This document shows positions 5,992-28,967 of a DNA stretch of 64,000 nucleotides, piece after piece. The notes beneath the pieces are model-generated. The model saw only the letters and a list, made by a program, of their open reading frames with translations, was not told the DNA's origin and did no database searches. The translations under genes were made by a program, and so were the position numbers. Numbering within the stretch: the first letter of the stretch is position 1; every line of letters begins with the position of its first letter. The DNA lies in assembly GCA_044347345.1 (NCBI GenBank), contig JBIKUX010000005.1:1-64000 (forward strand), written 5' to 3'. This DNA is from Bdellovibrionota bacterium. GTDB taxonomy: Bacteria > Bdellovibrionota_C > UBA2361 > JBIKUX01.

Positions 5992-6414
5992 ATGTCTCCA
6001 CGCGTTCGAGCAATAGTGGCAACAAGAGTAAACAATTTTGACAGTAAAAAAAATTTAATCCCTCTGGCAAAACAAATAGCCAGCCAAAATCGTGAGCATC
6101 AAATAGGTGGGTTAATTTGTTATGGTAACGGGTCTTTTTTACAACTTATTGAAGGAGAGAGACTAGAGATCAGCCGAGCTCTTATAAGAATTGGCCGTGT
6201 TGCACCAGATACAACAGAGTTTTTGGGTCTTAGAGAAGTCCGTGAGGATGACATTAAATTTGAAGAATGGCTCGAAGAACCTTTCATAATTGAAAATACT
6301 TTCGCCATATTTAGCAGAGAGAGTTTTGCCCCAAATACTTTTTCGTTTTTAGTAGCTGAAGCTCTAATTACATCACTTTTTAAAAATAATCATACAGATA
6401 AGAAATGTATTTAA
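5992..6414 (+). CDS. BLUF-domain protein (degenerate)
   Basis: QNREHQIGGLI...FLQLIEG...FEEW matches the BLUF core (N..ITGxL...FxQxLEG...FxxW). The conserved N-terminal Tyr is absent. Confidence 0.7.
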   Translation: MSPRVRAIVATRVNNFDSKKNLIPLAKQIASQNREHQIGGLICYGNGSFLQLIEGERLEISRALIRIGRVAPDTTEFLGLREVREDDIKFEEWLEEPFIIENTFAIFSRESFAPNTFSFLVAEALITSLFKNNHTDKKCI

Positions 6415-7581: not shown

Positions 7582-8541
7582 TCATTCAATATTACACACC
7601 TGTTCTCGCAACCGTTCAACCTCTAATTTGCCTTGAACAACTAAGTCAGTTACCTGAGAGCGTCGTACTTTTGATCCAATAGTTGTTAGCTCTCTTTGTA
7701 ACTCCTGTAGATAAAATTCTAACTTCTTACCACAAGGAGAAGATTCTACAGCTTTATCTAAATTAACTAGATGACTTTTTATCCGAACTAATTCTTCTTC
7801 AACATCAGCCTTGTCGGCTATTAAGGCTACTTCCTGCCATAATCTATCAGAATCTTTTGCATCTAGTGATCGTACTTGACTAATTAATCGCCCCACTCTT
7901 TCTTGTAACTCCGTGAAGAGTTTTTCAATGTTCTGACTTGTCTCACTACACAAACGTTGATAAATTTGGCGGACTAATTCAATTCTGTTCGATATATCTT
8001 TACGGAGATTGCTTCCTTCATTGTAACGAGAAACTAATAACTCATTAATTGCCTGAGTTACGCTGTAGTCTAATGCTGTTTGCTGAGAATCACTTAAAAT
8101 TTCACTACTATCTTCACGATTCACATTCCAAACTTCGCTTCGTTTTAAAGAAGCTAAAATCAACTTTTGCTGCAAAGCATCAGTTACCGGTAGATGCTTT
8201 CTAGCAAAATCAATCATTTCTCGAAACAATAACTCAGCACTCTCATGATTAAGAGACTGTGCTTCTACTTTTGGTCTTGCGATATAAATTAAAACTTCAA
8301 TTTTTCCTCGAGAGAATGCAGCCGAAATTTTTTGCCTTAAACTAGACTCTATATGCCCCTGTAATCGTGCACCCTTCATGATGATATCAAGAAACCTACT
8401 ATTTACTGAGCGCATTTCAACTCTTACAAGCCCTCCATCAGCAATCTGACAAACAGATTGGCTAAATCCAGTCATACTTTGCAAGACGCCCTTTGAATCT
8501 TGGATTTTATCCTCAGCCACACACATAAAATTTGCGCTCAC
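7582..8541 (-). CDS. yicC: YicC/YloC family endoribonuclease
   Basis: SMTGF, EMRSVNSRFLD, RGKIE, DVEEELVRI, GKKLEFYLQE..RE..TIGSK, REQVCNIE. Confidence 0.93.
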   Translation of the reverse strand: MSANFMCVAEDKIQDSKGVLQSMTGFSQSVCQIADGGLVRVEMRSVNSRFLDIIMKGARLQGHIESSLRQKISAAFSRGKIEVLIYIARPKVEAQSLNHESAELLFREMIDFARKHLPVTDALQQKLILASLKRSEVWNVNREDSSEILSDSQQTALDYSVTQAINELLVSRYNEGSNLRKDISNRIELVRQIYQRLCSETSQNIEKLFTELQERVGRLISQVRSLDAKDSDRLWQEVALIADKADVEEELVRIKSHLVNLDKAVESSPCGKKLEFYLQELQRELTTIGSKVRRSQVTDLVVQGKLEVERLREQVCNIE

Positions 8542-8567
8542 ATGATCATTTCAACTTCGCTGAATTT

Positions 8568-9614
8568 TTACAGCAGATAAAAAGCTTCTACTTCTTGCAT
8601 GAGAAGATCGAGCCTAATTGGAACGGTACCTACCTCTGCTACTACCATACCCGCCGCAAGATTCGCTATGCATCCTGCCATTTCTGCTGATGCACCAGCT
8701 GCAAGGAGCGCTGTAAAGGTAGCAGTAACAGCATCACCGGCACCAGATACATCAAAAACGGATAACGCTTGAGCTGGCAATCTATGCACTTCTTCAGGCT
8801 TATTAGGCTCATTCTGCACAATAACTAGACCATCCTCTCCCAATGTTATAAGAGCCATTTGAAGCCGCCACAAACCAAGCAGCGTGCGAGCAGCACTTAT
8901 AAATTCTTCATTATTACTTAACTTAAGACCAGTAGCTTGCTCTGCTTCATGTCGATTGGGTTTTGCAACCGATATTCCACCATTAAAATATAGGTGAGTA
9001 TTACGAGGATGTGGATCAAGAACGACTGGCTTTTTAGATATACCAGTAATACCTTGTCGCGCTGCCTCTGCTAAGATAGCCATCATAGGATTCGAGACAA
9101 CTCCTTTACCATAATCAGATATAATTATGGCGTCACTTCGCTCCAATTCTCTTTCGAGCAGAGTTGCTAACTCCAGTTGTGAAACTTCAGAAAGTGGCGC
9201 TAAATTCTCTTTATCAATACGCACTATCTGCTGTGATTGAGCTACCACTCGTGTCTTTATTATTGTGGGATGTTGTTCTGATGCAATTACTCCCTGCGTA
9301 GCTACTCCATTCGCATCCAGGTAGGCTCTAATAATTTCACCTTCTGCATCCATTCCAACTACGCCTATCATAGTCACCTTAGCACCCAACTCGCAGAGAT
9401 TTCTCACAACAAGTCCGGCTCCACCAACGCGATCATCGGTATGGGTCATCTGAACGACAGGCACTGGAGCCTCTGGCGAAATACGATTACACCGCCCCCA
9501 AATATACCGATCTAGCATTAAGTCTCCCACTACTAAGATATGCAATTTTGGAATTGCAGCGATTAGCTGACGAGCAAGCTCGGCAGATCCCGCTGAGGGA
9601 ATCTGATTAGGCAT
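8568..9614 (-). CDS. hldA: D-glycero-D-manno-heptose-7-phosphate kinase (stand-alone HldA/RfaE1)
   Basis: VGDLMLDRY..G...RISPEAPVPVV, SDYGKG, KPNRHE, DVSGAGD. No adenylyltransferase domain. Confidence 0.93.
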   Translation of the reverse strand: MPNQIPSAGSAELARQLIAAIPKLHILVVGDLMLDRYIWGRCNRISPEAPVPVVQMTHTDDRVGGAGLVVRNLCELGAKVTMIGVVGMDAEGEIIRAYLDANGVATQGVIASEQHPTIIKTRVVAQSQQIVRIDKENLAPLSEVSQLELATLLERELERSDAIIISDYGKGVVSNPMMAILAEAARQGITGISKKPVVLDPHPRNTHLYFNGGISVAKPNRHEAEQATGLKLSNNEEFISAARTLLGLWRLQMALITLGEDGLVIVQNEPNKPEEVHRLPAQALSVFDVSGAGDAVTATFTALLAAGASAEMAGCIANLAAGMVVAEVGTVPIRLDLLMQEVEAFYLL

Positions 9615-10746
9615 AAAAACTATCTCCTGATGTATAACATGCTAATTTTTCGCTGACACTATCAGAATCATTAGTCATGAGAGCTGCCAAAATTTTATCT
9701 CTAACTTGTTCAGCAGAAATAAGCGACATACAAATGTTACCAAATCCAGGGCAAACACGTTTCATACATGGAGTACACTTTAATGAGACTCTTACCACTC
9801 GATTTTCTTGTCCAAAGGGAGCTACTCTTTCCTCTGTTGTAGGACCAAACAAACCAACATAAGGAACACCAAGAGCTGCTGAGATATGACCAGGGCCTGA
9901 ATCTGGCCCTGCGGCCACAGAGCATACCGATAAAATGGCCAAAAGCTCTTTAAGAGTTGTAGCTCCTGCTAAAGATAACAAATTATTTTTGCTAACATTG
10001 CCACGCGAGCTTATTAATTCAACAATTCTATTAGCGAGCACAGCTTGAGTCTTATCGCCAAGTAATATTATAGAGCAACCAAGTGAGGAGTCCTTGAGTA
10101 GAAGTTCGATTAATCTAACATAACCGTAAATAGTCCAATCTTTTGTCTCCCAAGTTGAGCCCATTATCATACCAATGATTGGTTGCGAATTTTTGGCAAT
10201 ATTTTGAACTGATAAGGGTGCATCGCTGATTGTTACAGCTTTTGATAAACCAAAAGAAACGTTTTTATTATTCTCAACTCCTAGCAGAGGAAGAAACTGT
10301 AAATAATGATAAACTTTCGAAATTTTAGGGTCACACTGAGGGATGTGATCAGTATTAAATAACCAATTATACTCTTTTGAATCAGCTCTATTAAAGCCGA
10401 TGCGTCTTTGAGCTGGAATAGATCTTGAGAGAATACCGCTTTTAAGATGGCGCTGAAGATCTAAAACAACATCAAAAAATTTTCCCTCAATATCTTTTTT
10501 AAAGGTCTGATAAGCAGACAGACTTTTGACAGCCTTTGCAACAATAGATCCGGAGTAGGGTCTTTTAAACTCTATCACCGTATCAACATACGGGTTAAGC
10601 CTGACAATGCCGGCACTTTTAGGCTCAACAATCCAAGTAATGTGACAATCACGAAATGCCTCTTTAAGAGGGGGTAAAATGGCAAATGCTCGTACCACAT
10701 CACCAAGTGCACCTAAAAGGACGATAGCAATCGAAGTCTGCTTCAT
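9607..10746 (-). CDS. GT9 LPS heptosyltransferase (WaaC/WaaF-like)
   Basis: LGALGDVV, DLQRHLKS, DSGPGHISAALG, LFGPT, C-x-PC..R-x-C. ATG at 10746 preferred. Confidence 0.9.
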   Translation of the reverse strand: MKQTSIAIVLLGALGDVVRAFAILPPLKEAFRDCHITWIVEPKSAGIVRLNPYVDTVIEFKRPYSGSIVAKAVKSLSAYQTFKKDIEGKFFDVVLDLQRHLKSGILSRSIPAQRRIGFNRADSKEYNWLFNTDHIPQCDPKISKVYHYLQFLPLLGVENNKNVSFGLSKAVTISDAPLSVQNIAKNSQPIIGMIMGSTWETKDWTIYGYVRLIELLLKDSSLGCSIILLGDKTQAVLANRIVELISSRGNVSKNNLLSLAGATTLKELLAILSVCSVAAGPDSGPGHISAALGVPYVGLFGPTTEERVAPFGQENRVVRVSLKCTPCMKRVCPGFGNICMSLISAEQVRDKILAALMTNDSDSVSEKLACYTSGDSFYA

Positions 10747-10763
10747 TAGGTCACCAAAACAAA

Positions 10764-11510
10764 TTAGACAACAGTGTGGCGGCGGAGACCGAGACACATA
10801 AGAGACGAAAGAAATTCTGGAAGTTTATGTTTTATTACAGCGCGTCGCCATCTTCTCAAATAACGATCCCGCAACATAAGTGTTCCCCATTTCACAACCT
10901 GAGCTTTATCAAAATCCAAAAGATAAACTGTATTGCTCTTATCAATAACTACATTGCCTGGATGAAGGTCAAGATGAAACACTCCATTAGCTATCAATAA
11001 ATCGATCTGATGAAGAAGTGGCTCGAATAAAATTCGTGCTCGCTCAGGTTCATTTTTTGCCATTTCAGCAAGAGTTTGATGATAAGGAATTTCGCGAGTT
11101 GCAAGCCATGCTCTGTAGCATGGTAAAATCTGTCCTACTGAATCAGTCGCCGAATGATAAGCTGCCCACAAAACAGGCTCTGGAGCCATTATTCCAAGTG
11201 ATCTAACAAATAATAACATTTGGAATTCAGATTCGCTTCTGTAGGGGCCACGCTTTACATATCTTGAACGAACAAGTCGTCCAAGCAAACCTCCTCTATG
11301 ATAGCTCTTTATCACTATTGAACCCGAATCATTATGATAAACCAGTTGAATAGATGCTCTACCCTCAAGAATTCTCGGTTCGTTTTTATTTATACCTGCT
11401 ACAAATAATTTATTTTGTTTAAAATTAAAAATCTCCTTAATTATGTATTCAATACTACTTCTACTTAAAGTAGGACAATATCCGACAACATACCCGTCCA
11501 CTATATCCAT
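10764..11510 (-). CDS. kdkA: Kdo kinase (KdkA/WaaP LPS kinase family)
   Basis: GRA, KSYHRGG, HLDLHPGNV, LLDFDKA, Y-L-x-RWRR. ATG at 11510 preferred because the longer ORF overlaps the upstream GT9 by 136 nt. Confidence 0.8.
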   Translation of the reverse strand: MDIVDGYVVGYCPTLSRSSIEYIIKEIFNFKQNKLFVAGINKNEPRILEGRASIQLVYHNDSGSIVIKSYHRGGLLGRLVRSRYVKRGPYRSESEFQMLLFVRSLGIMAPEPVLWAAYHSATDSVGQILPCYRAWLATREIPYHQTLAEMAKNEPERARILFEPLLHQIDLLIANGVFHLDLHPGNVVIDKSNTVYLLDFDKAQVVKWGTLMLRDRYLRRWRRAVIKHKLPEFLSSLMCLGLRRHTVV

Positions 11511-11581
11511 CTTTACTTCAGGAGAGGAGCGCAAATTTGGCTCACTTGTTGGAGTAGTTGACACTGCCTTTCTCTCGGAAA

Positions 11582-12649
11582 CTATGGAGACAAGTGATAT
11601 TGAGTCGAAGTGCCCTGACTTAGGAAAGGAGGAGTCTCCTCTAGAAGTCTCATCACTGCTGTCATAACGTCTTTGGGCGCTACTCCCTTCATACATAACT
11701 CTGTTCCTGTTGGGCATGCTATACTTCCATGGCGTTTACATGGCTTACAATCCAGAGCTTCATGTTGCACTACTAAAGCTTGATTTTGCCAGGGTCCAAA
11801 ACCAAACCAAGGCGAAGTAGCGCAAAATATGGTCACTGTAGGAATTTTAAGGGCCGATCCGATATGCAGAGCCATACTGTCATTACATACCACTAATCTG
11901 GCTCGACTTACCATCCAAACTGTTTCATCCATTGATGTTACACCAGTAAAATCTCTCACTGCATCATCGGGAAATCCTTCGGCTACAAAAGAATTGTTAT
12001 TGCGCTCGTTAGGCGCTCCCATAATGCATACCCGATAACCTTTTGTAATTAAATTACTAACAATGCTGCGAAAACCCTCTTTGTGCCATCTTTTGGTTGC
12101 CCAAACACTAGATGGAAAAATAGAAACATAAGGACTATTTCCTTGGCACCAAGATTTAACCTCAGCACTTACACTTGATTCCGGCGGAATTACTAGGGTG
12201 AGATTAGTTGTAAGGTTTTTTGTAACTGAGTTATCTCCTAAAATAGAGAGGTTACGAATAACATCATGCTCGCCTACTGGTCTTGTTTTAAGTTCAGTAT
12301 AAAGAAAAGCCCCTTTAGCTGACTTAAATCCAACTCTGTAAGGGATATCAGCAAGGGCTAAAACTAAGCTTGTTCGAAGAGAACGGTGCAAAGAATACGC
12401 AACATCAAATTTATACTTCTTAAGTTCTTGTGCGAGATTCCAAATTCCGCGCAAGCCTTTTTGTTTACCTCTTTTTGCAAAGGGAATAACCCTATCAACT
12501 GATGAATTATATTTAAAAAAGACGGTAGCACCCGGAGTTGTGAGCACAGAGACGATTGCCCCACTATGATGCTGCTTAATTGCATCTGGAAGATGCGTTG
12601 ATAAAATACAATCTCCTAAAAAGCCTAATTGGACTAGTAAAATATTCAC
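11582..12649 (-). CDS. GT9 LPS heptosyltransferase (WaaF/WaaQ-like)
   Basis: GFLGDCIL, SVWATKRW, CNDSMALHIG, CKPCKRHG..CP. GTG start at 12649 assumed. Confidence 0.9.
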   Translation of the reverse strand: MNILLVQLGFLGDCILSTHLPDAIKQHHSGAIVSVLTTPGATVFFKYNSSVDRVIPFAKRGKQKGLRGIWNLAQELKKYKFDVAYSLHRSLRTSLVLALADIPYRVGFKSAKGAFLYTELKTRPVGEHDVIRNLSILGDNSVTKNLTTNLTLVIPPESSVSAEVKSWCQGNSPYVSIFPSSVWATKRWHKEGFRSIVSNLITKGYRVCIMGAPNERNNNSFVAEGFPDDAVRDFTGVTSMDETVWMVSRARLVVCNDSMALHIGSALKIPTVTIFCATSPWFGFGPWQNQALVVQHEALDCKPCKRHGSIACPTGTELCMKGVAPKDVMTAVMRLLEETPPFLSQGTSTQYHLSP

Positions 12650-12672
12650 AATATTAACTATAACAGCGTTAT

Positions 12673-13638
12673 CTATAATTGTCGCCTGGAAGATTGCTGC
12701 CGCTCTTTTTTCATCCATTCAATCTGACGCCCAAGACCTTCTCTAATAGAAATCATTGGAGTGTAATCAAGCATTAGTTGTGCCTTTTTTATTAAAGCTG
12801 AAGTTCTCAGCTGATCTCCGTTTCTGGGTGGTTTATATTCAATACGGACATCTTGTCCGCACAGCTCTGACACAATACGAATCCCTTCATTTGTAGTTAT
12901 CTCTGAGTCTGACCCAATATTAAAGATTTCTCCCTTCCAACTCTCTGGGACTGCAATAATCCGGAGAAATCCCGAGATAATATCATCAATGTAGGTAAAA
13001 CTCCTCGAGTGGTGTTCACTGCCTTTGTGCAATGGAAAAGGAGTCTTATCGAGAGTAGCAGCTATTAGCCTCGGATATAGTTTGTCGGGACGTTCTCTTG
13101 GACCATAGACTGAAAACAGTCGAAGCGAACAAGCTGGCAGGCTTTTCTCTCGATTGGCGGCCAAAACCAACTGCTCTGCGGCTAGTTTTGTAACACCATA
13201 ATGCGAAGTTGGTTTTGCAGGTGAATCTTCAGAGTCTGTTGCATTTTTACCGTATACTGAGGATGTAGCGACATTAACAAAACATTTTAAATTTTGAGCC
13301 TGTACTAAGCACGCTTCTATCAACCGGTGGGTGGCAATGATGTTATTACGCACATATTGATCAAATGATGTAACCGCAGAAATACCAGGCTGAGCCGCAC
13401 AGTGATATATAAATTCCGCCTTTTTAACAAAAGGAATGAGATCTGTTAAGACCAAATCTCCTTCTATAATTTCGCCACCAGCTTGACGCACAACGTTGGC
13501 GTTAAGCTCTTTTAACTCTCGGGCATAGTATGAGTCAAATGAATCGATACCAACAACTGTGTGACCAAGCTTGAGAGCAGCTTCAGCGAAATGAGACCCT
13601 ATAAATCCGGCGATTCCAGTAATAAAAAGCGATGCCAT
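12673..13638 (-). CDS. NAD-dependent nucleotide-sugar epimerase/dehydratase
   Basis: GIAGFIG, AAQPG, TSSVYG, YGVTK (YxxxK), FSVYGPRERPD. Confidence 0.93.
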   Translation of the reverse strand: MASLFITGIAGFIGSHFAEAALKLGHTVVGIDSFDSYYARELKELNANVVRQAGGEIIEGDLVLTDLIPFVKKAEFIYHCAAQPGISAVTSFDQYVRNNIIATHRLIEACLVQAQNLKCFVNVATSSVYGKNATDSEDSPAKPTSHYGVTKLAAEQLVLAANREKSLPACSLRLFSVYGPRERPDKLYPRLIAATLDKTPFPLHKGSEHHSRSFTYIDDIISGFLRIIAVPESWKGEIFNIGSDSEITTNEGIRIVSELCGQDVRIEYKPPRNGDQLRTSALIKKAQLMLDYTPMISIREGLGRQIEWMKKERQQSSRRQL

Positions 13639-13806
13639 AGAAAATTTATAAAACTCTAGCCGTATTAAAAATACCGGTAGTCTAATCTCAGGCTGTTTTC
13701 TACCTTTCCCGTTAGTCTACTCTGGAAGCACCTAACTGATCAAAGATTCTCTCCCCCTCCCTGTCTTTTTCATTTCTTCTCTCAAATCAGTAACAAAAGA
13801 AGAACA

Positions 13807-16800
13807 ATGTTTCTATTTAGTACCCGTATACGTGCAAAAACAGAACAACCTTCTATTGCAATGTTTCAAATCAGCCCTAACCCGTCAGAAAATCTTACTT
13901 CTCAGAGCACCAATAGTAATAATTCTCACCTACCATTACCAGTCCCTAACAATTTAAATGGTTTAGACCCTGAACTTATAAAATACTATCTAAAAAATTT
14001 TTGGGACTTATTGGATACCTTTATAGTAGATGCCCAAAACAAACCTTTTTACACTTTGGCATTACAGGAAATTCAAACAAACTCATTAGCTCTTGATATT
14101 GTAATTGAATCAGCAGCCATATCAGAGCAGAATAACTATATAAACGAACTTAAAATTTATCTAACCAAGTGTTTTCTTACACAATATTGGCACCCATCCT
14201 TAGTAGAAACATTCTATAGCCTGCTAAATAAACACAACTTAGCAACTTTTTCACTAAGTGATACCTTCCAAGAGGCTCTCAGAGCTACTGCAGATTTTGC
14301 CGCCGTAAACTTTTACTCGTTAGATGATGACGAAATCCAAAAATCGTGTAGCGAAGCTTCTAGGGAACTATTCAGACTAATTGAAAGTTCCGACTCCTCC
14401 ACTCTTGATTTTCAAGGCTTAAAAACATCCATTCTAAATTTCTTAAAAGAATGGATCTCCTCTGGATGCTCTAAAGAAAATTTTTGGACATTAGTCAATG
14501 AACAAAAAATATCCCTCGTATCACCTCTACAGTGTCCTATCAAAACAGCAAGCACTGTCGAAACAGCAAGCACTGTCGTCCACCAAGAAAAACCAACTCA
14601 AGGGGAAATACAAATCCCCCCTAAGAATCTAAGACTAATACAAGGCCTAATTTTATCTTCAATCCTACGGTGGTTAAATAGAGAACAATGTGACCAAAAT
14701 GAAAATATTGGTGTTATCACTTTACCTCATGGAGCCGGCAAGACCGATTCTCTCTTAGTTCTTGGTAACCTATTACTCGCTCAAAACAAAAAAGTTGTAA
14801 TTATCGTAAGCCATGAGGGTCTTTACCCCAAATACCGAGAGCTTTGTCCAAATACAGAATTAACTACGTATAGCAAATTTGACCACCAAGAACTTGACTG
14901 CACAAACACCGTAATTCTAGCTGACGACCCCCCACCAAGATTTGCCGGTCTTGTGTCTGTTAACAGTTCAACTCATGTGGTAATTTTTACCAGTAAACTT
15001 CCTCCGCTCCAATCACCGCAAATCACTAACCTTTCCTCAGAAATAATCCCAGAGGATATTCTAAAAAAACAATTAGAATTAACATCCCCAATTTTTAACT
15101 CACCTAAAATAATTTCTACAGATAATCAATATGAAAACTTGTCTGAGCTAGCTGAAACTGCAGAAGGCAATATCGTCGTTTTTGTTAAAACTCGAAAAGA
15201 AGCTAAAGAATTGTATGAATATTTAAGGGATAAGTTTCATGTTGCCAAATATACCGGCGAAACGCCCCCAGAGCAACGTGCACTAATACTCGATAAGTTT
15301 AAGGATAGTACAAATACACCTCAGATTCTCATTGTCACTACCATCGGACAAACTCATCACCACCAATTTCCAGCTACGACTGTTATTTTTTTTGGGTCTC
15401 ACTGCTCGAACCCAGATATTCAGGAAAAACTATCCACCGTTGCAAATAGTTCGACACCGATAAATGTCATATTCTTAATTAATAAGGGAGAGCCCGAGCC
15501 ACCACTAAACCAAATTAACCGACCACCTACATTACTTAGTTTACCTGCGCAACATCTCTATCCTCACCGACCAAAGAATACCCTACAACTTACAATACCA
15601 AGTAATCGTGACACTACCTTAATCAATGAGAAAATTGGTACTAAATCGAACTCTAAAGTTCTTAATCTACCAGAAAACCTCCTCAAACTATATCGGCTCT
15701 ATTTAGGCAATTTTTTTGAAAAACTAAAATGGCTTGAATTGCTTGTTACTCTCAAAGCAGAAGAATATGTGCTTCCACAGTTTCAAATTAAGGCAAATAT
15801 CGCTGATTTTGTAATCCATAATGAGAATGGAGAACCAATCAAAGTAATAGAAACAAAATGGGGTGGAACGAATCATCAAGGAACACTCGATAATATAACG
15901 GCTCACCTCACTAAAATTATTGAAGGAATAATAGAAAAATTTGGTAACCAAACTTCTACTCCTAAATTTGAACTGCATACTTTTCAAAGTATTTCCGAAA
16001 AAAAAACAAGATTTTTTGGAGTGACTGTTAAATCTATGCATGAACAAAGTCATCCCTTAATAAAAGAACTTTTCATGCTAGTTGCCGCCGAGCTTCGTGA
16101 ATTTGCAAAAACTACTGATCTAGCAAGCCTTAAATTAATAGAAGAGCATATTGAAAAAATTATCTGTGAAATTGTTGGGATAGAATCTTTTAAAGATTTG
16201 ATAAATTTAACGGTAGATAAAAGCAAAAATAGAGATCTTACAGAATTGAGCGAAAAGTTTAACCGCCTAAAAAATTCATTGCAAAAAAATTCATCGGCCG
16301 ATTTTGATTTTACAAGTCCTATTACTCAAGAACCTGGAACAGTAACACAAGGATCTCGATTTGAAGTTCTTGAGAAATGTTTGCGAAATTCTTTACAACA
16401 TACTCTTAATCAATTGGTGTGGCCACCAAACAGTAATAGCCCTACAAAACGACAATTTAATGAGTCGCATGTAACCACAGAAATCCGTAGAAAAATACGC
16501 AGTAAGAGTTGGTTCCCCTCATCGAATACAGTGAATTATGTCACAATCAGCATTAACCAAGCTATCATATCAATCAATGCGTATTTATCTGATCCGAATA
16601 CATCGCAAACAAACCAAAAAAAATTATACTTAAAGATATCAGAGGCATTAAGCGAGCTCTCTATGATATTAAGCAAACCATTTCCGAGCCTAAGCAATGA
16701 GTTAACTAACGTTAAAACTCTAAGCGGTGCAATCAAAACTCTAAATGGCATCTCTCATAATCTCTATATATTAAAGTTTGTGATGATGACAGGTGAGACT

Positions 16801-17613
16801 TCTAATAAACGCGAAATGCATAAGAAGTTATTCTGGCTCAAGAATTGTTCAGATTTGACTGAATCTGTTGTTACGCTACTACAAGCAATAACTAAATTAA
16901 AAAATAATGAAAGGATTACTGACAATACTAGTAACCAAATGAAACAACCCCCCACTATTACTTGGAGCGATTTAACAGATTTTTTTGATAAAACTTCATT
17001 CCCAACTGAGGGGTTTCTTCAAAATGGTCAAAGCATCATGCAAGAGATGCTTGCTTCCCAAAAATTATTACTACGATTATCTGATGAAACGAAAGAAAAG
17101 CCTTGGTGGGCTAATTGGGGTAGTAGAATTAAAAACCAGATTGAATATTTATCTCCAGACCTACAAGAAGTTTTTCCCCAAATAACATTAGACAACTTAA
17201 ACAGTGCGGCTCATGTTTTAATAAGCAAAAAAGAGACCTTGGTTCTAATAAATAAGTTAGTCTCTCTACTGAGTAGTGAAAAATCTGAACCAGCAGACTT
17301 AAAAACCGAATTTGAGGAGCTCTATGCTTATGTTATTTCTTTGGACCCTGAGCAGACAGATCAGACAGAGCAGACACAAACTTCTGTGACCAAGGCTCAC
17401 ATCCTAAAGTTATTTAACTCCTTTAATAATAAACTAAACAAAACTTTTAATTTTACCAGAGGTCGAGACAATCTGGAGAATAATTTAAAACGTATGTGTT
17501 ACTATTATATAATTTATGAACTTGAAAAGTTCCAAACTGAAATTTCACCTATAACCGGCTCACCTCTTACACAACTACTTATTCAGTTACGATTGAATAA
17601 ATACGGAAGCTAA
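13807..17613 (+). CDS. Large orphan: degenerate SF2 helicase core plus PD-(D/E)xK-like nuclease motif and helical C-terminus
   Basis: Walker A LPHGAGKT (about 14720-14745); Walker B-like VILADD; helicase-C IVVFVKTRKEA...YTGETPPEQR...ILIVTT; GNFFE...IADFV...VIETK (about 15700-15860). May start at ATG 13861. Confidence 0.65.
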   Translation: MFLFSTRIRAKTEQPSIAMFQISPNPSENLTSQSTNSNNSHLPLPVPNNLNGLDPELIKYYLKNFWDLLDTFIVDAQNKPFYTLALQEIQTNSLALDIVIESAAISEQNNYINELKIYLTKCFLTQYWHPSLVETFYSLLNKHNLATFSLSDTFQEALRATADFAAVNFYSLDDDEIQKSCSEASRELFRLIESSDSSTLDFQGLKTSILNFLKEWISSGCSKENFWTLVNEQKISLVSPLQCPIKTASTVETASTVVHQEKPTQGEIQIPPKNLRLIQGLILSSILRWLNREQCDQNENIGVITLPHGAGKTDSLLVLGNLLLAQNKKVVIIVSHEGLYPKYRELCPNTELTTYSKFDHQELDCTNTVILADDPPPRFAGLVSVNSSTHVVIFTSKLPPLQSPQITNLSSEIIPEDILKKQLELTSPIFNSPKIISTDNQYENLSELAETAEGNIVVFVKTRKEAKELYEYLRDKFHVAKYTGETPPEQRALILDKFKDSTNTPQILIVTTIGQTHHHQFPATTVIFFGSHCSNPDIQEKLSTVANSSTPINVIFLINKGEPEPPLNQINRPPTLLSLPAQHLYPHRPKNTLQLTIPSNRDTTLINEKIGTKSNSKVLNLPENLLKLYRLYLGNFFEKLKWLELLVTLKAEEYVLPQFQIKANIADFVIHNENGEPIKVIETKWGGTNHQGTLDNITAHLTKIIEGIIEKFGNQTSTPKFELHTFQSISEKKTRFFGVTVKSMHEQSHPLIKELFMLVAAELREFAKTTDLASLKLIEEHIEKIICEIVGIESFKDLINLTVDKSKNRDLTELSEKFNRLKNSLQKNSSADFDFTSPITQEPGTVTQGSRFEVLEKCLRNSLQHTLNQLVWPPNSNSPTKRQFNESHVTTEIRRKIRSKSWFPSSNTVNYVTISINQAIISINAYLSDPNTSQTNQKKLYLKISEALSELSMILSKPFPSLSNELTNVKTLSGAIKTLNGISHNLYILKFVMMTGETSNKREMHKKLFWLKNCSDLTESVVTLLQAITKLKNNERITDNTSNQMKQPPTITWSDLTDFFDKTSFPTEGFLQNGQSIMQEMLASQKLLLRLSDETKEKPWWANWGSRIKNQIEYLSPDLQEVFPQITLDNLNSAAHVLISKKETLVLINKLVSLLSSEKSEPADLKTEFEELYAYVISLDPEQTDQTEQTQTSVTKAHILKLFNSFNNKLNKTFNFTRGRDNLENNLKRMCYYYIIYELEKFQTEISPITGSPLTQLLIQLRLNKYGS
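14543..14578. repeat. 18-bp in-frame tandem duplication (TASTVE/TASTVV)
   Basis: AAACAGCAAGCACTGTCG x2. Confidence 0.9.
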
Positions 17614-17876
17614 TTAACTTTATCTATCTCATTTAAAATATCAATGACTGCCTCATACAGAGTGATTGGGATATTACTTTCCACGTTCAAATTAGTAAGA
17701 GTAGGACGAAGTTCTGGGCGATAGACGATGGGTATATTATACTTTTTAGCAGTCGCAATAATAATAGAACCTATTTCATGACTTCCCTTAGCCGACACAA
17801 ACGGAGCGTCATCTACATCTTCATTAAAAGCAAGAGCTAATACTAACTTATCTGAAAGGCCTTCACCGTTTTTCAT
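17610..17876 (-). CDS. SctU/FlhB C-terminal (post-cleavage, FlhX-like) domain
   Basis: LALAF...APFVSAKG....IIATAKKYNIPIV...L...IP..LYEAV..IL is the FlhB/SctU CC subdomain. Confidence 0.88.
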   Translation of the reverse strand: MKNGEGLSDKLVLALAFNEDVDDAPFVSAKGSHEIGSIIIATAKKYNIPIVYRPELRPTLTNLNVESNIPITLYEAVIDILNEIDKVN

Positions 17877-17885
17877 TTCGAGAAA

Positions 17886-20800
17886 CTATCCTTTTACTAA
17901 AGCTTGGTCGCTTGGTTTATTTTTATTATCTAAGCCAAATTCATTAACTCTTAAGGCCATAACACGCCGAGTTACTGCATGAATCTTCCAAACATCAAAT
18001 GGCTTTCCTATGACCTCGAATCTCTCTCGATTAAGAGCTCTTATACTCTGCCAACGACCTGCCTCGTCAGAAACAAGACAAATATGCAGTGAAGGTGGAG
18101 TCCCAAGAAGATCATTAATATCAAAATGAGGATTATCAGCATAGGCGATGATAATCGCAGTAGAATTTAATGTAGCCGATACTTCAGAAATAGAACGGCC
18201 AAAAGCGACTACTACTCCCTGAGCTTCAAACCGAGTTGCTACCCTGTGCTCCTCCTCTTCTGGAAATCCTATAAGCACAACCTCAGCAACTATTCCTGAG
18301 GCAAGACGTTGAAGAGATTTTTCCTTTGAATTGATACTGCCTATTACAGCACGCGGAAGAAATACGCTAAACATTGAGCCTCGACCCGACTCGGTTGTAA
18401 CCGTTAAGTGACCTTGATGATGCCTAAGCACTGAATAAGCTGTAGACAATCCAAGACCTGCACCAGTTATGCCAATGCCGAGCCTAGAATCAACATTTTT
18501 AGTCGTAAAAAACGGCTCAAAACACCGAGATTCTTCCTCTGATGTCATTCCCTTTCCATTATCGGCTATATCTATTCGAATATAATCACCAGGAATGAGT
18601 AATCCATCAACATCACTTGGAGCTACAGCTACCTCCCCAACTGATATTACTATTCTTGGATTGTAGTGCTTATCATTTATTAAACGACCCTCAATAGCTT
18701 CCTTCGCGTTAATGAGTACGGTAGAGAAAACCTGTTGTAGGAGTTCATGATCACCGTATACTGGAAGCTCTTCATCAGGAACATTTATTTCAACTAACGT
18801 AGTAGCCCCAACAATTGTACGGTAGTAACTTGTTGATGTCTTTATTAACTCACCAATATTAACAATAGTTCTGACCTCCGGTTTGTGCGGGGAAAAGTGT
18901 AGAAGATGAGCAATTAAATTAGTGCCTCTCTCAGCAGCCGCCAGTATAGACGAGGATGCTTTGTGAATAGCACTATCTTTTGTTGCTTGCATTTCTATTA
19001 AAGACGCTTGTCCCATTACAGCCTGAAGGAGATTGTTAAAATTATGCGCTACCCCAGATGCTAAAACTCCAGCGGCTCGCATCTTCTCTGAAATAGCCAT
19101 CTTTTCCTCGAATCGTCTTGCAAGCATTACTGTTGCTAATTCTGTGGCCATACTGGAGAGCAATGGGAGTTTTTTTTGTGAAAAAAAAGCTCCTGCATGA
19201 ATTGGTTCTACTATCAATACTCCAATTGTTTGAGAAAGAGCTGTCAACGGAACAATTACCACTGCCCCTATTTCAAGAGTTCGAGCAACCCGAGATAAAG
19301 AGATACAATCTGAAGAGGAAGCTTTATCAATAATTGTGGGATTACCTGATTCCAGTACTTGTTGTAGCTGCCGCTCAGTGGAGCGCATCTCTATCCTCAG
19401 AGTCTCAAGCGATTTACGCATCCCCGGACCGACTCCAGCCTGTCCAACTAGATGGCTACCGGCTTCATTGATAACACCAAGCCACATTCTTTTACAGGCT
19501 AGTTCTTCTTGAATTATCGGAAAGGCTGCAAGTCCTATATCTCTCGGACTTAAGTGTTTTGAAACTTCATGGCTTAAACGGTAAAGCGCGGCATAAGAAT
19601 CGGCTTGTCGCTTTTGATTTAAATAAAACTCTGCACGACGTCCAGCAACACCTATTTGACTAGCGGCCGCCAACGCAAAATCAAAATCACCTTGAGTAAA
19701 TTTAAAGGCATCTGGACTATACACGGCTACTGCCCCGAGTGGCATATCTTCGTCTAATAAAGGAACAACAACAGCCGACCGAAGACCTTGCTCAGCTAGC
19801 AAAAAACCGGAATATCGCGGGTCTTTTGGCAGATCATCAATCAATACTCCTTTTCCACTCTCAATTATTGATCTGGTAAGAGACCCAGCTTGAAGGCGCG
19901 ACTCTAACATCTCGACTGTTTTAATTGGAAGACCGTGAGAAGCTATCACCTCAAGTTGTCCACTTGCTCGGTCGAAGAAAGTCACATATCCACACTGAGC
20001 TCCTGTTGCCTCAATCAAAGCATGCAATCCTCTCTCTGTTACTAACCGTGGCTCACTACCGAATTCAAGCGCTCGAGTCATCCGATATAAAGCATTAAGG
20101 CGCCTCTTATTTAACATTCGCTCGTGATCAATACGCTTGGTATCAGATACATCCGTAACTATAACTTCCCAACCTAAAAAAACCGTATCAGTCTCAGGAT
20201 TAAAATCGTCTTTTACTGACCCACTAATATGAGGAGCATCACCGTAGTGAGGGACTACCATTAAAGACAGCCACCTCATCCCACGCCCATTTGGAAGTTC
20301 TACTTGAATATCATCTTGCAATGGAATTCTAGCTAATAAATACCGCCGAAATTTGCGCATGATCTTAGCGCGATGAACACGAGGAATAAGTCGAGCAATA
20401 TCTTCATTACCTAAAAGTTTGGTTAAAATTAACGCATACGGTGGAATTCCTACAATCCGGCTCACATCTCCAGATACTGAGAGAATAGTGAGCTCAGAGT
20501 CGGTGCGTAATACAACAGCTCCAGCATAATCAATAAGCCTTTTGTACTGAACTTTTACCTCAAGTAATTTACTCTGAAAACTGCGGCGACCACTTGGTAA
20601 AATTACACAAGCAAACCGTTGACTACTTTGTTCACCCTCTCCTAGTCTAAAAATATGTACTGTATGATCACCTACGGCGGCTAACGGACCCTCTCCTCTC
20701 CAATCACATCGCTGATAGACGCTACCCTGATCTATCAAATGAGCCAAAGTTGTAAGTATGGCTTGAGCTTGAGTTCGAGATAAATATTCTTCACTAAGCT

Positions 20801-21635
20801 CCTTAAGAGAGCGTCCACAGACTGATTGAACAGGCCCAAAAAATCTTTCAAACTGCGCATTTCCCTCGAGTAAAATCCCATCTTTAGAAAGAAGAAAAGA
20901 CGGGAAAGGTACTTCGTCCAATATACGGTTCCCACTATTTGCCTCTGTTACCGGCCGTTGTATAACTTCATCAAGTTCTTTGGATACTTGACGACGCCGT
21001 AGCTTTCTTCCTCGTCCAACTACTTCTCTAAACCTTTCCTTTTGTGTGGAATCCCGTTTAGCACTATTTTTTAGCTTATGTACAAACTTACCTATCGCAG
21101 AAACACAGGTAAAAAGTTCACCTACGATATCTCCTCGCCAAACAAAGCTAGGGCTACGATTTATAAGCTGAACATACCCTAAAAGAGCACCATTATTCTC
21201 AATTGGTAGAATAGCCAAACTAGACAAACCACGCTCTACCATAGCAAGATGAAGGCTTGTAGGAGCTCCATCTATACTTGGTACAAGCAAAGGTAACGAT
21301 ATGATTGCTCCGGACAAAGCTACAACAGAATTATTACTGAAGTTCAGTGGTATTAAATCAGCGGTCAAATGAGCTCGATCATAAAGCTCATTCTCCTCTC
21401 CTAGACTGGCAAAAAAAGCGACGTGCCTGATTTCTGTTGAGGTATTTGCCGAACCAACCACTACCTCTACTGCATCTACTCCGATTCCACCAGAGATAGA
21501 TCTAGCAGCGCGAGATACCAAATCATTGAGGTCAGAGGACTGCTCAATCTCACTGAGTAAAGAGTATATAAGGTCAGTTTGTTCCTTGACCATCTGCTTA
21601 GCATTACCCCTCAGAAAAAAAAACAATGAAATCAA
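17886..21635 (-). CDS. Cytoplasmic hybrid sensor histidine kinase (GAF-PAS-PAS-GAF-GAF-HisKA-HATPase-pseudo-receiver)
   Basis: H-box GVAHNFNNLL, N-box VLINAKEA, DNGKGM, FEPFFTTK, GLGLS, C-terminal KPF; several GAF-like S-x-x-x-VPL...GAV segments; no clear TM helix. May start at ATG 21593. Confidence 0.9.
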   Translation of the reverse strand: MISLFFFLRGNAKQMVKEQTDLIYSLLSEIEQSSDLNDLVSRAARSISGGIGVDAVEVVVGSANTSTEIRHVAFFASLGEENELYDRAHLTADLIPLNFSNNSVVALSGAIISLPLLVPSIDGAPTSLHLAMVERGLSSLAILPIENNGALLGYVQLINRSPSFVWRGDIVGELFTCVSAIGKFVHKLKNSAKRDSTQKERFREVVGRGRKLRRRQVSKELDEVIQRPVTEANSGNRILDEVPFPSFLLSKDGILLEGNAQFERFFGPVQSVCGRSLKELSEEYLSRTQAQAILTTLAHLIDQGSVYQRCDWRGEGPLAAVGDHTVHIFRLGEGEQSSQRFACVILPSGRRSFQSKLLEVKVQYKRLIDYAGAVVLRTDSELTILSVSGDVSRIVGIPPYALILTKLLGNEDIARLIPRVHRAKIMRKFRRYLLARIPLQDDIQVELPNGRGMRWLSLMVVPHYGDAPHISGSVKDDFNPETDTVFLGWEVIVTDVSDTKRIDHERMLNKRRLNALYRMTRALEFGSEPRLVTERGLHALIEATGAQCGYVTFFDRASGQLEVIASHGLPIKTVEMLESRLQAGSLTRSIIESGKGVLIDDLPKDPRYSGFLLAEQGLRSAVVVPLLDEDMPLGAVAVYSPDAFKFTQGDFDFALAAASQIGVAGRRAEFYLNQKRQADSYAALYRLSHEVSKHLSPRDIGLAAFPIIQEELACKRMWLGVINEAGSHLVGQAGVGPGMRKSLETLRIEMRSTERQLQQVLESGNPTIIDKASSSDCISLSRVARTLEIGAVVIVPLTALSQTIGVLIVEPIHAGAFFSQKKLPLLSSMATELATVMLARRFEEKMAISEKMRAAGVLASGVAHNFNNLLQAVMGQASLIEMQATKDSAIHKASSSILAAAERGTNLIAHLLHFSPHKPEVRTIVNIGELIKTSTSYYRTIVGATTLVEINVPDEELPVYGDHELLQQVFSTVLINAKEAIEGRLINDKHYNPRIVISVGEVAVAPSDVDGLLIPGDYIRIDIADNGKGMTSEEESRCFEPFFTTKNVDSRLGIGITGAGLGLSTAYSVLRHHQGHLTVTTESGRGSMFSVFLPRAVIGSINSKEKSLQRLASGIVAEVVLIGFPEEEEHRVATRFEAQGVVVAFGRSISEVSATLNSTAIIIAYADNPHFDINDLLGTPPSLHICLVSDEAGRWQSIRALNRERFEVIGKPFDVWKIHAVTRRVMALRVNEFGLDNKNKPSDQALVKG

Positions 21636-22390
21636 CTAATAATGATTACTCTCGAATTTTTTACTCTCTCTTCGATAGTTTTTGACAAAAAGGCATGATA
21701 TTCAAGCTCACGCCGAGCCTTTAACGCTGGATCTCCATTATTGTCACGATACTCCTTTCGTAACTCCTCTGTTGTCATTCCGTATTTTCTTTGGAATAAA
21801 AAATTACTCACAAGAAGATCTGCCAGAGCTATTATAAGAAGAATAACAAAACACACTGTAGATCCTAACCAAACAACTACCCAAGGTTTGTAGAACCATC
21901 CGTTAGATACGTCCTTAACTTTACTCCATAACACCAAATAGAGCACAGTAGAAAAAACAATGACAAGAAAGAAATTTACAAGACCAGCAAAGACTTGCCG
22001 AAAAAATTGAGTGATCCAAGAAGAGGGATTCAATCTTTCAAGCTGAAAGGAAATAGTTTTGACCGTGATATGAATACCTGTTTGATATAAACTAAGTAGT
22101 ATTGCACTTATTCCTCCAAAAACAAGCGGAACTACCCCCAGCATAAACCAGATAACTAACAGTGGTTTAAGTGCCATTTTGATGCAAATGGACGTATTTT
22201 TCTCCATAGCAAGACACTGCAAACCTGGCTTGATGGATACCTTGGCACAATAAACCCAAATAATAAAAGTAACAGACACAACTACTATTCCGGCACATAA
22301 CGCACCGATTGCTCGAGGGCTGTTATTTACTATTCCTTTATTTCTCAACTGAGTGAGTTTATAAGTTGAAGGAGGAAAATTTTTATTCAC
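21632..22390 (-). CDS. sctU: SctU/FlhB N-terminal part (TM domain plus CN linker), ending at the autocleavage position
   Basis: PSTYKLTQLRNKG, four TM segments, LERLNP, MTTEELRKEYRDNNGDPALKARR; ends KNSRVIIIS-stop with no NPTH. Confidence 0.88.
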   Translation of the reverse strand: MNKNFPPSTYKLTQLRNKGIVNNSPRAIGALCAGIVVVSVTFIIWVYCAKVSIKPGLQCLAMEKNTSICIKMALKPLLVIWFMLGVVPLVFGGISAILLSLYQTGIHITVKTISFQLERLNPSSWITQFFRQVFAGLVNFFLVIVFSTVLYLVLWSKVKDVSNGWFYKPWVVVWLGSTVCFVILLIIALADLLVSNFLFQRKYGMTTEELRKEYRDNNGDPALKARRELEYHAFLSKTIEERVKNSRVIIIS

Positions 22391-22405
22391 TTCTTATCTT
22401 ACAAT

Positions 22406-23194
22406 TTATCTAGTAGGAAGAGATAACTTTGCATTCCCAAGCATGGTTAATAGATTGGTATCATAGGTAGCTGCTATTATTTTTTCAAAAGCTACTATTT
22501 TCTCAGAGAACAATCGTTGACAGATGCAAACTAGCAAAAGAGTGATTATGCTAGCCCGAAATATATTAAACTCTGCATTAGCCGATATTCCTGGAACTAG
22601 TTTAGAAATTATTATAGCAATACCGTCAGCCAAAAGACTCAGAAGGATTAATGGAATTAAAAAAAGAATTAGTTGAGAGATTGTTGAAGTAAGAAGAGAA
22701 ATGACTACTGAGCTTAACATCTCAAATGAGAAAACTGAACTGCCAACTCTAACAAATTTAAAACTAGTTATATAATTCTCTGCGAGTCTATGAATAGCTC
22801 CAGATAATACCAAACAAGCAAGAGTTAATTTTTCTGTATATATCGCCAGTGGAGAGCTCTCTTTATTTTGAGAGGAGAATGAATAGGGATTAAGAATAGC
22901 ACCTAAAGATGTACCGCGAAAACTATCGACTAATGCTCCGAGGACTCTACCACTTCTCAGAAAGAGAGCGATAGGACATCCAATAAGACATCCAAAAATA
23001 AATTCTTGCACATAAAGAAAAATCGACCAAATAGAGAATAATTCGCTTACTCTATTGGATGTAAAAGAATCTAAATTACCCATAGCCCAAACAGAAAAAA
23101 CCAATGCAACTGTTGCCTTTAGCGGTCCCTTAATAAAAGGGAATAAGACTAAAACCCCAAGGGCGCGCATGAACTCATACAGAGGAAATATCAT
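22406..23194 (-). CDS. sctT: T3SS export gate SctT (FliR family)
   Basis: Polytopic membrane protein; QEFIFGCLIG, GALVDSFRG, LLAD...SKLVP; lies between sctS and sctU. Confidence 0.85.
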   Translation of the reverse strand: MIFPLYEFMRALGVLVLFPFIKGPLKATVALVFSVWAMGNLDSFTSNRVSELFSIWSIFLYVQEFIFGCLIGCPIALFLRSGRVLGALVDSFRGTSLGAILNPYSFSSQNKESSPLAIYTEKLTLACLVLSGAIHRLAENYITSFKFVRVGSSVFSFEMLSSVVISLLTSTISQLILFLIPLILLSLLADGIAIIISKLVPGISANAEFNIFRASIITLLLVCICQRLFSEKIVAFEKIIAATYDTNLLTMLGNAKLSLPTR

Positions 23195-23218
23195 AACGAA
23201 GAAATTAAAGTATTTTAA

Positions 23219-23482
23219 TTATAATTCCGTTCTTCCAATAGAAGCTCCTAATTCTATTGCGTTAACTGTGAGTTGTTCAAATTTTCGCCATAACGTCGCA
23301 CTTCCAGCTAGCAACACGATAAACAGCACCACAAGTTTAATGACAAATTGAGAGGTTTGTTCTTGAACGTGAGTAGCAGCTTGAATGGCACTGACAAACA
23401 GTGACACTACACTCGTGATAATAAGAGGAACAACTCCAGCTAAAAAAAATAACCAAAGTCCATTAATTAAAAGTAGTCGCAT
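23219..23482 (-). CDS. sctS: T3SS export gate SctS (FliQ family)
   Basis: 87 aa, two TM helices, VSAIQAATHVQEQTSQFVIKL. Confidence 0.92.
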   Translation of the reverse strand: MRLLLINGLWLFFLAGVVPLIITSVVSLFVSAIQAATHVQEQTSQFVIKLVVLFIVLLAGSATLWRKFEQLTVNAIELGASIGRTEL

Positions 23483-23489
23483 AGTAGAA

Positions 23490-24146
23490 CTATTGATAAG
23501 ATAAAATCAGACTTTCAGAGAGAAGTATCCACCCGTTTGTTACTGCAAAAAGAAGTAACTTAAGAGGCAGTGCTACTAAAGTAGGGCTCACCATCATCAT
23601 TCCAAGCCCCGTCAAAAGTTGAGCTACGACTAAATCAATAATAACGAAGGGTGTAAGCAAAGCTACACCCATAAGTAACGCTTCTTTTAGTTCACTTAAA
23701 AGAAATGCAGGAATCACCTCAAACCATTTGAGAATAGATTCCTCTGGGATATCGGAATCAATGATATTCTTTTCGGAGGAATTATTTGCACGCATTCGAA
23801 TAATGAAATCTCTTTCAGACCTGCCGGTGTGACGATCCAAAAATGCAAGCCATGGAGCGAAAATATCCTTTATTTCTTGACTAGAGACCGATCCCACTCC
23901 CTTTCCAACCAGAGGTTTTATCTTAGGTAAGACCTCTTCAAAAATAGGACCCATTATAAAGCCAGTGAGAGCTAGTGCGAGTACAACTTCTGCTAGAATG
24001 CCAGGAGACTGCTGTAAACCTAAGGCATTTTTTAAGACCTGAAGCACTATAGATATTTTAAGGTAAGATGATGCTACACCAAAAATTATCGGAAACACTG
24101 ACAACAAAAACGCTGCAGAAAGTAAGGTTGTAGGCTGAAAATTCAC
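23490..24146 (-). CDS. sctR: T3SS export gate SctR (FliP family)
   Basis: SYLKISIVL..LKNALGLQQSP, PAFLLSELK, PFVIIDLVVA..L.GLGMMMVSP..VALPLKLLLF...GW. No FliP-type signal peptide. Confidence 0.95.
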   Translation of the reverse strand: MNFQPTTLLSAAFLLSVFPIIFGVASSYLKISIVLQVLKNALGLQQSPGILAEVVLALALTGFIMGPIFEEVLPKIKPLVGKGVGSVSSQEIKDIFAPWLAFLDRHTGRSERDFIIRMRANNSSEKNIIDSDIPEESILKWFEVIPAFLLSELKEALLMGVALLTPFVIIDLVVAQLLTGLGMMMVSPTLVALPLKLLLFAVTNGWILLSESLILSYQ

Positions 24147-25359: not shown

Positions 25360-25434
25360 TAATATTTCCTCATACTAAATTTATAAGGAAATAATCGAAA
25401 TCAATCGTCAGACGTTGCTTAAAAATCTTATAAG

Positions 25435-25875: not shown

Positions 25876-26008
25876 AATGGGGGAGGTTATCAGCTTCTTA
25901 ACGAGGCTACAAGGAGGTTCAGTATTTCGTTGTTTTTGAAGCGAAAGAGATTAGATTGTCGTCCCAATAGAGAATGAAAGAAAGCTCGGTATTTCTCGTG
26001 GATATTGT

Positions 26009-26971: not shown

Positions 26972-26985
26972 TTCTCTTTAACGAG

Positions 26986-28830: not shown

Positions 28831-28967
28831 ATTTCGCCTCAATAAAAATAGGACTTAACCAAAGATTAGTTGGCTTATATTGTTAATTATTTACCGATAA
28901 TGCAAACAAACCTAAAAATCGTGTCCCCTCTTTCATTATTTATCTCACAAGTGTATTACTTAAGTAT

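Follow-up and report, generated by a model that had tools for sequence, protein, structure and literature searches.

What might a 1268-amino-acid (aa), helicase-like protein do beside type III secretion system (T3SS) genes? This question is raised by a 64,000-nt stretch of DNA from a Bdellovibrionota bacterium (GenBank assembly GCA_044347345.1, contig JBIKUX010000005.1, positions 1 to 64,000 of the forward strand), which is referred to below as the window. The open reading frame (ORF) in question, P0001, starts with ATG and extends from 13807 to 17613 on the plus strand. An earlier annotation made from the DNA letters, the original prediction, took its product for an inactive helicase gating a PD-(D/E)xK nuclease and serving either as a T3SS effector or in defence. 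We found that P0001 is an orphan whose only recognisable part appears to be a degenerate superfamily 2 (SF2) helicase-like core, and we tentatively regard it as a lineage-specific, non-motor SF2-helicase-like protein that is linked to the T3SS.

The helicase-like core and the segment beside it

A stop-free run of 1268 codons would be expected by chance with a probability of ~2e-39 given the base composition of the gene itself. P0001 is therefore a gene and not a chance ORF, and we consider this point confirmed. An exhaustive HMMER search with residues 69-1268 against 1,835,955,588 representatives returned one match, a 100%-identical 316-aa fragment of the same protein (P0002). A word-index search for proteins of similar length gave no match at E ≤ 0.001 among 7999 scored candidates, and the corresponding search for shorter proteins recovered the same fragment alone. 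The 90% cluster of P0001 has 2 members, and the full-length sequence occurs on 7 contigs. None of the 125 pattern matches from a scan of genome contigs was confirmed, and tblastn with P0001 against phages and plasmids found nothing at E ≤ 0.1. These searches show P0001 to be a lineage-restricted orphan without detectable relatives, a total absence that limits further computational insight into the protein.

The whole gene and the two halves of the helicase-like core are placed as follows.
13807..17613, plus strand: whole ORF P0001, with an alternative start at Met19 (13861)
14694..15006, plus strand: short RecA1-like half, residues ~297-400, placed by the sub-cut-off ResIII match, the P-loop and the eIF4A alignment
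15121..15486, plus strand: RecA2-like half (Helicase_C), residues ~439-560, placed by Pfam, phrog_16 and the DDX25 alignment

The RecA2-like half was recognised by the Pfam Helicase_C profile on residues 443-530 (E 4.8e-9), which scored 36.9 bits with the whole protein and 39.2 bits with the piece (cut-off, 23.5). Two PHROGs DNA-helicase families matched the same region, phrog_16 with an E value of 3.8e-8 and another with 3.1e-5. The original prediction had described two RecA-like SF2 domains; the second of these and an intact P-loop were upheld, but the RecA1 profile, ResIII, stayed below its cut-off of 22.5 (17.0 bits with the whole protein; 20.6 bits, E 4.6e-4, with the piece). The ResIII match covered residues 290-357 and only positions 16-78 of the 164 in the profile. 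In NCBIfam the whole of P0001 matched RhlB alone, at 17 bits against a cut-off of 564. The ten best family-bearing matches in the ESM Atlas were all ResIII, DEAD or Helicase_C clusters, the top one at 0.92 with 180 of 256 features shared. Sequence matches of the core in the PDB included DEAD-box and reverse-gyrase alignments, which placed motifs III to V.

In SF2 proteins motif II has the form DExx, with a catalytic Glu, and motif VI has the form QxxGRxxR. Motif I of P0001, the P-loop or Walker A, is intact as first described (G309-A-G-K-T313), and the motif Ia strand is VVIIVS at residues 330-335. Because the eIF4A alignment, which starts at T389, sets VVIFTS on the motif III strand (F394-T-S396 at the motif III position), VILADD falls at motif II. 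The motif II position reads V370-I-L-A-D373-D374-P-P376, with Asp374 replacing the expected Glu, and in this register the eroded Walker B that had been noticed (ADDPP, residues 372-376) proved correct. The strands of motifs Ia and II are just ~32 residues apart, and the RecA1-like half is unusually short. The DDX25 alignment sets ILIVTTIG on the motif V strand; the motif V position, TTIGQTHHHQF, lacks the Gly and Asp of that motif. The motif VI position, I538-Q-E-K-L-S-T-V545, was placed by aligning motifs IV and V with those of DDX25 and contains no arginine, in agreement with the earlier reading. These observations support the conclusion that the only recognisable part of P0001 is a predicted SF2 helicase-like core in which the P-loop is intact and motifs II, V and VI are degenerate.

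Two further parts follow the core.
15487..15678, plus strand: proline-rich linker, residues ~561-624, from reading of the sequence
15679..16086, plus strand: alpha/beta segment with a PD-(D/E)xK-like motif, residues ~625-760, from the motif

The AlphaFold2 (AF2) model gave the linker nearly no secondary structure, at low confidence. In the segment that follows, the motif residues are E652/E653, A666-D667-F-V-I and V680-I-E682-T-K684 (DNA 15760-15858). They conform to the PD-(D/E)xK pattern, in which an acidic residue in a helix comes before D...(D/E)xK residues borne on hydrophobic strands. A strict form of the motif, defined as a hydrophobic residue, D and a hydrophobic residue, then 6-24 residues, then two hydrophobic residues, D/E, any residue and K, occurred once in P0001 (666-684). 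As at least one occurrence was also found in 6.85% of 2000 shuffled sequences, the strict motif counts as weak evidence when taken alone. A loose form of the motif was not enriched (3 observed vs 6.4 expected).

Searches with this part of the protein gave no nuclease. No nuclease family matched residues 601-780 in Pfam (E ≤ 10), PHROGs (E ≤ 1) or PADLOC (E ≤ 1), ERCC4 being among the Pfam families without a match, and no nuclease profile in Pfam, PADLOC or NCBIfam matched the whole of P0001. In the PDB, no sequence matched residues 611-765 (E ≤ 10). Of the 25 candidates scored when the word index was searched with the 155-aa piece, not one reached E ≤ 10. AF2 single-sequence models of residues 270-760 and 611-775 had a mean predicted local distance difference test score (pLDDT) of 34.7 and 37.5, respectively, too poor for the fold to be judged. 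As P0001 has no homologues, there is no alignment with which these models could be bettered. Foldseek comparison of the low-confidence 611-775 model with the PDB gave no match at E ≤ 0.001, and the matches listed were mixed, unrelated small folds that included no nuclease. The order of elements assigned by DSSP (helix, strands, long helix, strands) fits the restriction-endonuclease fold with its alpha-beta-beta-beta-alpha-beta core, in a model of low confidence. Among 30 Atlas matches to residues 611-765 the sole family-bearing sets were PDDEXK_3 (0.86) and AHJR-like (0.85), neither of which reached the level of 0.9 that marks a lead. We take both of these to be restriction-endonuclease-like families.

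Of the complete-looking nuclease signature that had been noticed, the residues E652/E653, D667 and E682-T-K684 are in place, but a PD-(D/E)xK nuclease found no profile or PDB match. Residues 625-760 may be a restriction-endonuclease-like domain. The broader proposal of an inactive helicase gating a nuclease fared in the same way: its helicase half stood, with a degenerate core that keeps the P-loop, but the evidence for its nuclease half consists of the motif and the sub-threshold Atlas leads. A 109-aa antisense ORF (15724..16053, minus strand) lies inside P0001 over the putative nuclease segment and is most likely spurious.

A motor-dead helicase beside a nuclease has known counterparts. XPF/Hef-type proteins and AddB are nucleases with a catalytically dead helicase-like domain, and AddB keeps its Walker A. 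The abstracts of PMC5510004 and PMC4824097 are consistent with the idea of a dead helicase combined with a nuclease. P0001 resembles these proteins in having a presumably motor-dead helicase-like module as a possible binding or recognition unit beside a putative nuclease. Unlike them, it matches no ERCC4 or RecB-family profile and has no gene for a partner subunit next to it. Moreover, AddB belongs to superfamily 1 whereas the core of P0001 is SF2-like, and XPF/Hef and AddB are repair proteins that are conserved and have many relatives, unlike the orphan P0001. As far as can be judged from sequence, the flanking regions of P0001 are unprecedented and it has no family of its own.

Setting of the gene and a possible link to type III secretion

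P0001 lies between two operons. To its right is the T3SS export-gate operon, with genes for an SctI-like protein, two proteins of unrecognised family, sctR, sctS, sctT and sctU. To its left is a lipopolysaccharide (LPS)-core operon encoding an epimerase, two heptosyltransferases, a Kdo/WaaP-like kinase and a PfkB kinase. The adjacent genes encode an NAD-dependent epimerase/dehydratase family protein and the C-terminal piece of a divided SctU (17610..17876, minus strand; 88 aa). The latter overlaps P0001 tail to tail by 4 nt, an overlap noted in the original prediction. Also as first described, P0001 is a lone plus-strand gene in a minus-strand run: no other long plus-strand ORF occurs from 6425 to 25875, and the remaining ORFs of at least 100 aa in this interval are all on the minus strand. 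Its poverty in G was likewise reproduced, with a coding-strand GC skew of -0.19 to -0.23 across 13500-15999. The following features complete the description of the gene.
13639..13806, no strand: divergent intergenic region of 168 bp from the LPS-core operon (epimerase, minus strand) to P0001, from ORF coordinates and sequence
13807..13971, plus strand: low-complexity N-terminus rich in S, T, N, Q and P, residues 1-55, from composition
13972..14613, plus strand: N-terminal domain of unrecognised family, residues ~56-269, with no Pfam, PHROGs or PADLOC match
16087..17610, plus strand: tail of unrecognised family, residues 761-1268, with S/N/T-rich stretches and no Pfam, PHROGs or PADLOC match

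The 168-bp region presumably holds the gene's own promoter, and the scan listed no plus-strand sigma-70 consensus site within it. A clear Shine-Dalgarno sequence was not seen at either candidate start; a purine run, aaaagaagaaca, stands just 5' of Met1, and none stands at Met19. Both starts share the context CAATGTTTC, the two copies lying 54 nt apart (repeat D9; 13805..13874). The S/N/P/T-rich N-terminus quoted in the original prediction, MFQISPNPSENL, is present in the protein but begins at Met19 (13861) rather than at the start of the ORF (13807). The fraction of S, T, N, Q and P (STNQP) over residues 1-50 was 0.56, which ranked first of 48 window ORFs, and it was 0.70 over the 30 residues from Met19. 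STNQP-rich 30-aa windows begin at residues 5-31. Three proteins of the T3SS cluster also stood near the top of this ranking, those encoded at 25024..25359 (SctI-like), 24143..25030 and 25435..25875.

A single basic cluster, RRKIRSK (894-900), occurs in the tail. The repeated TASTVETASTV is encoded by a tandem duplication of 18 nt (repeat D8; 14537-14572). Searches for internal repeats in P0001 and for paralogues in the window found none. A membrane protein was considered and rejected, the sole 19-residue window above a Kyte-Doolittle value of 1.6 falling in the helicase core. The hydropathy profile shows P0001 as a predicted soluble protein without a membrane segment.

The GC content of P0001 is 0.355 vs 0.400 for the window. 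Its value at third codon positions (GC3) was 0.288, the other 48 ORFs ranging from 0.234 to 0.377, and its synonymous log-likelihood per codon was -1.068, with the others at -0.99 to -1.19. The deficit resides in the first (GC1, 0.435) and second (GC2, 0.342) codon positions, reflecting amino acids rich in S, T, N, K, I and L and poor in G, A and R. Recent horizontal transfer was rejected as the cause of the low GC content, since GC3 and synonymous usage are typical and no flanking repeats of note, tRNA or RNA elements were found; the closest tRNA is at 28967, and Rfam elements are absent. Because its synonymous codon usage is native, P0001 appears to have resided in this genome for a long time, and codon usage shows it as an old gene there.

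We compared the locus with 80 loci anchored on an SctR probe. The best of these, L001, comes from a metagenome-assembled genome of an uncultured Bdellovibrionales (46% identity in SctR), and the remaining loci reached at most 42%. Both flanks of P0001 are kept in L001 in the same order: sctR, sctS, sctT, the N piece of sctU, a kinase gene and the C piece of sctU on one side, and epimerase, heptosyltransferase and Kdo kinase genes on the other. The slot between them (15974..18151 of L001) holds a gene for a 352-aa FHA/Yop-YscD_cpl (SctD-like) protein and a receiver-domain-like gene (325 aa) on the opposite strand. Neither of the two has a counterpart in the window (ORFs of at least 70 aa, E ≤ 1e-5), and neither resembles P0001. 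A tblastn search of the 80 loci with P0001 gave one noise match (E 1.3). The comparison shows P0001 in what reads as a variable slot between the T3SS export-gate and LPS-core operons. Co-occurrence with the T3SS cluster in relatives, which the original prediction had named as a check, was not seen: P0001 is missing from the 80 SctR loci, a thin comparison with a single near relative.

On the T3SS-linked reading that we tentatively prefer, retention of the P-loop makes nucleotide binding plausible. The core would not be an ATP-driven translocase, with Asp in place of the catalytic Glu, the motif V Gly and Asp gone and the motif VI Arg residues lost. It would more likely be a static module that binds nucleic acid or nucleotide and positions the surrounding domains, one of which (residues 625-760) may be restriction-endonuclease-like. 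In the weakest step of the proposal, P0001 would be secreted through the T3SS as a substrate or effector that acts on target-cell nucleic acid, and would not be a housekeeping or defence enzyme. A T3SS-linked role is suggested by the position of the gene, the disordered, S/T/N/P-rich N-terminus and the absence of relatives, and on these three grounds P0001 is possibly an effector or other cargo. It is like T3SS effectors in being lineage-specific, adjacent to the T3SS, rich in S, T, N and P at its disordered N-terminus, large and modular with low-complexity linkers. Unlike them, it has no chaperone gene and lies on the strand opposite to the T3SS operon.

A number of results weigh against this reading. 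For the segment after the core these are the lack of a nuclease family on residues 601-780 and of a PDB match for residues 611-765, the poor 611-775 model, and the Foldseek result. The gene converges with the T3SS operon and is not a member of it; no chaperone-like small ORF adjoins it, the upstream gap being just 168 bp; and L001, the sole relative that keeps the neighbourhood, does without P0001, so that T3SS co-occurrence is not observed. The composition of the N-terminus is a weak, non-specific criterion for secretion, and the first 30 residues counted from Met1 have an STNQP fraction of 0.43, which is ninth (tied) of the 48 ORFs. Asp at the position of the catalytic Glu might still permit slow ATP hydrolysis. 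To our knowledge a helicase-like core has not been described in any T3SS effector, and the titles and abstracts of the literature matches listed contained no such case. Nor was anything relevant to type III secretion in Bdellovibrionota found in the titles and abstracts of the matches listed. Finally, as 12 of the 49 window ORFs lack a Pfam match, orphans are common here and adjacency to the T3SS could therefore be a coincidence.

This last point leads to the leading alternative, which we consider possible but somewhat unlikely. P0001 would remain in the cytoplasm, unsecreted, as a lineage-specific protein that binds nucleic acid or has a regulatory role. Its degenerate core would provide a scaffold for binding in metabolism or regulation of the DNA or RNA of the cell itself, and its place beside the T3SS would be coincidental. 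The convergent orientation with a separate upstream region, the frequency of Pfam-less ORFs, the native codon usage, the L001 T3SS without an adjacent P0001 and the missing chaperone gene are all in its favour. However, relatives at the family level, at least, would be expected of so large (1268 aa) a housekeeping or regulatory protein, and the search of 1.84 billion representatives gave none. An N-terminus so rich in S, T, N and P is also unusual for a cytoplasmic enzyme. A cytoplasmic pseudo-helicase would be of modest interest as another enzyme fold reused as a binding module.

If P0001 were instead cargo of the T3SS, it would represent an effector derived from a helicase, for which we know of no described example, and it would offer a handle on T3SS use in a little-studied Bdellovibrionales-like lineage. 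In its fullest form, which we consider highly improbable, the effector proposal would have P0001 injected by the T3SS as a novel type of effector. It would be a pseudo-helicase that clamps nucleic acid inside the target cell, be it prey or a eukaryotic host, and that gates a restriction-endonuclease-like domain or brings it into place. The producing organism would then belong to a poorly known Bdellovibrionales-like lineage in which the SctU of the T3SS is also pre-cleaved at the gene level and coupled to a sensor kinase.

Defence and decay as alternatives

In Type III restriction-modification systems, the Res subunit consists of an SF2 helicase-like ATPase with a PD-(D/E)xK endonuclease behind it. 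The abstract of PMC11142916 is consistent with this architecture. P0001 has the same order of a ResIII-like half, Helicase_C and a downstream D...ExK motif. Unlike Type III Res, it has no Mod or methylase nearby, its ResIII match is below the cut-off and its motifs II, V and VI are degenerate; it also carries ~270 extra residues before and ~500 after these parts that match no known family, and it has no sequence relative. A Snf2 helicase with a fused nuclease domain is described as a single-gene defence protein in the abstract of PMC11232893. Like such Snf2-nuclease proteins and the ZorD-like SWI2/SNF2-Mrr defence proteins, P0001 is large and combines an SF2 core and a putative nuclease in one polypeptide; it differs from them in its weak, core-only PADLOC match (ZorD, E 0.0073), its degenerate ATPase motifs and the lack of a defence island.

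A stand-alone, Type III Res-like helicase-nuclease directed against phages or plasmids, in which the core senses or holds foreign DNA and gates a PD-(D/E)xK nuclease, is an improbable identity for P0001. The domain order speaks for it, as do the sub-threshold PDDEXK_3 and AHJR-like leads, a slot that differs between relatives and the cluster at Atlas rank 12, 'Restriction endonuclease subunit R' (ResIII, Helicase_C, Mrr_cat), which at 0.89 is below the 0.9 threshold. However, all PADLOC-DB 2.0.0 matches fell in residues 270-600, the generic core and chiefly its RecA2 half (Cas3, DinG, DpdF and ZorD models). The best were Cas3c with the piece (7e-6) and typeIV_DinG with the whole protein (1.2e-4), and neither the nuclease piece nor the tail had any match. 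Motifs II, V and VI, the very ones that are degenerate in P0001, are required by the ATP-dependent motors known from restriction and defence. Defence genes spread horizontally, yet the codon usage of P0001 is native and no relative was found, phages and plasmids included.

The surroundings of the gene also argue against defence. No methylase, partner gene, integrase, tRNA, flanking repeat or defence island is near P0001. The 17 ORFs scanned around it (7582..28842) gave no methyltransferase domain with Pfam, and the earlier statement that no methylase or immunity gene is adjacent agrees with the two neighbours given above. The generic PADLOC matches, the lack of defence context, the native codons and the absence of relatives together weaken the defence half of the original prediction.

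Decay of a once-active helicase or helicase-nuclease gene that is still open without selection would account for the eroded catalytic motifs, the low-complexity stretches with the 18-nt duplication and the lack of relatives, but a stop-free 3.8-kb frame is unexpected at 35.5% GC without selection and genome-typical synonymous codons suggest long residence as a translated gene, which makes this explanation very unlikely.

The divided sctU gene and other observations

The sctU gene of the window (17610..22390, minus strand) is split into two genes at the usual position of SctU/FlhB autocleavage (NPTH). The N piece of 252 aa corresponds to positions 2-256 of the 335 in Bac_export_2, and the C piece of 88 aa corresponds to positions 263-333. 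Between them lies a gene for a 1249-aa sensor kinase with PAS, GAF, HisKA and HATPase_c domains, which overlaps the N piece by 4 nt. In tblastn searches the same layout was found at two of the 80 loci, L001 (11663..15871) and L070 (6848..9660, to the contig end). NPTH is absent from the sctU pieces of the window, and the L001 C piece has NPKY at this place. No paper on a split sctU was found among the matches listed, as judged from titles and abstracts, and this arrangement may surpass P0001 in interest.

Among the 12 window ORFs without a Pfam match are 3 of the 18 assessed at E ≤ 0.01 and 9 of the 31 assessed at E ≤ 1e-4. The large ones include 52922..54856 (644 aa) and 55768..57795 (675 aa), and the genome looks rich in lineage-specific proteins. 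Another Pfam-less ORF, 31563..32705 (plus strand; 380 aa), has an S/T/N/P fraction of 0.63 over its first 30 residues, second to P0001 counted from Met19; from this composition its product could likewise be considered a candidate for secretion. At 42552..44186 on the minus strand, a Ser/Thr protein kinase of eukaryote type (Pkinase, E 6.5e-50) is joined to HEAT repeats, and the plus-strand ORF at 5992..6414 encodes a small protein of the BLUF type, a blue-light sensor.

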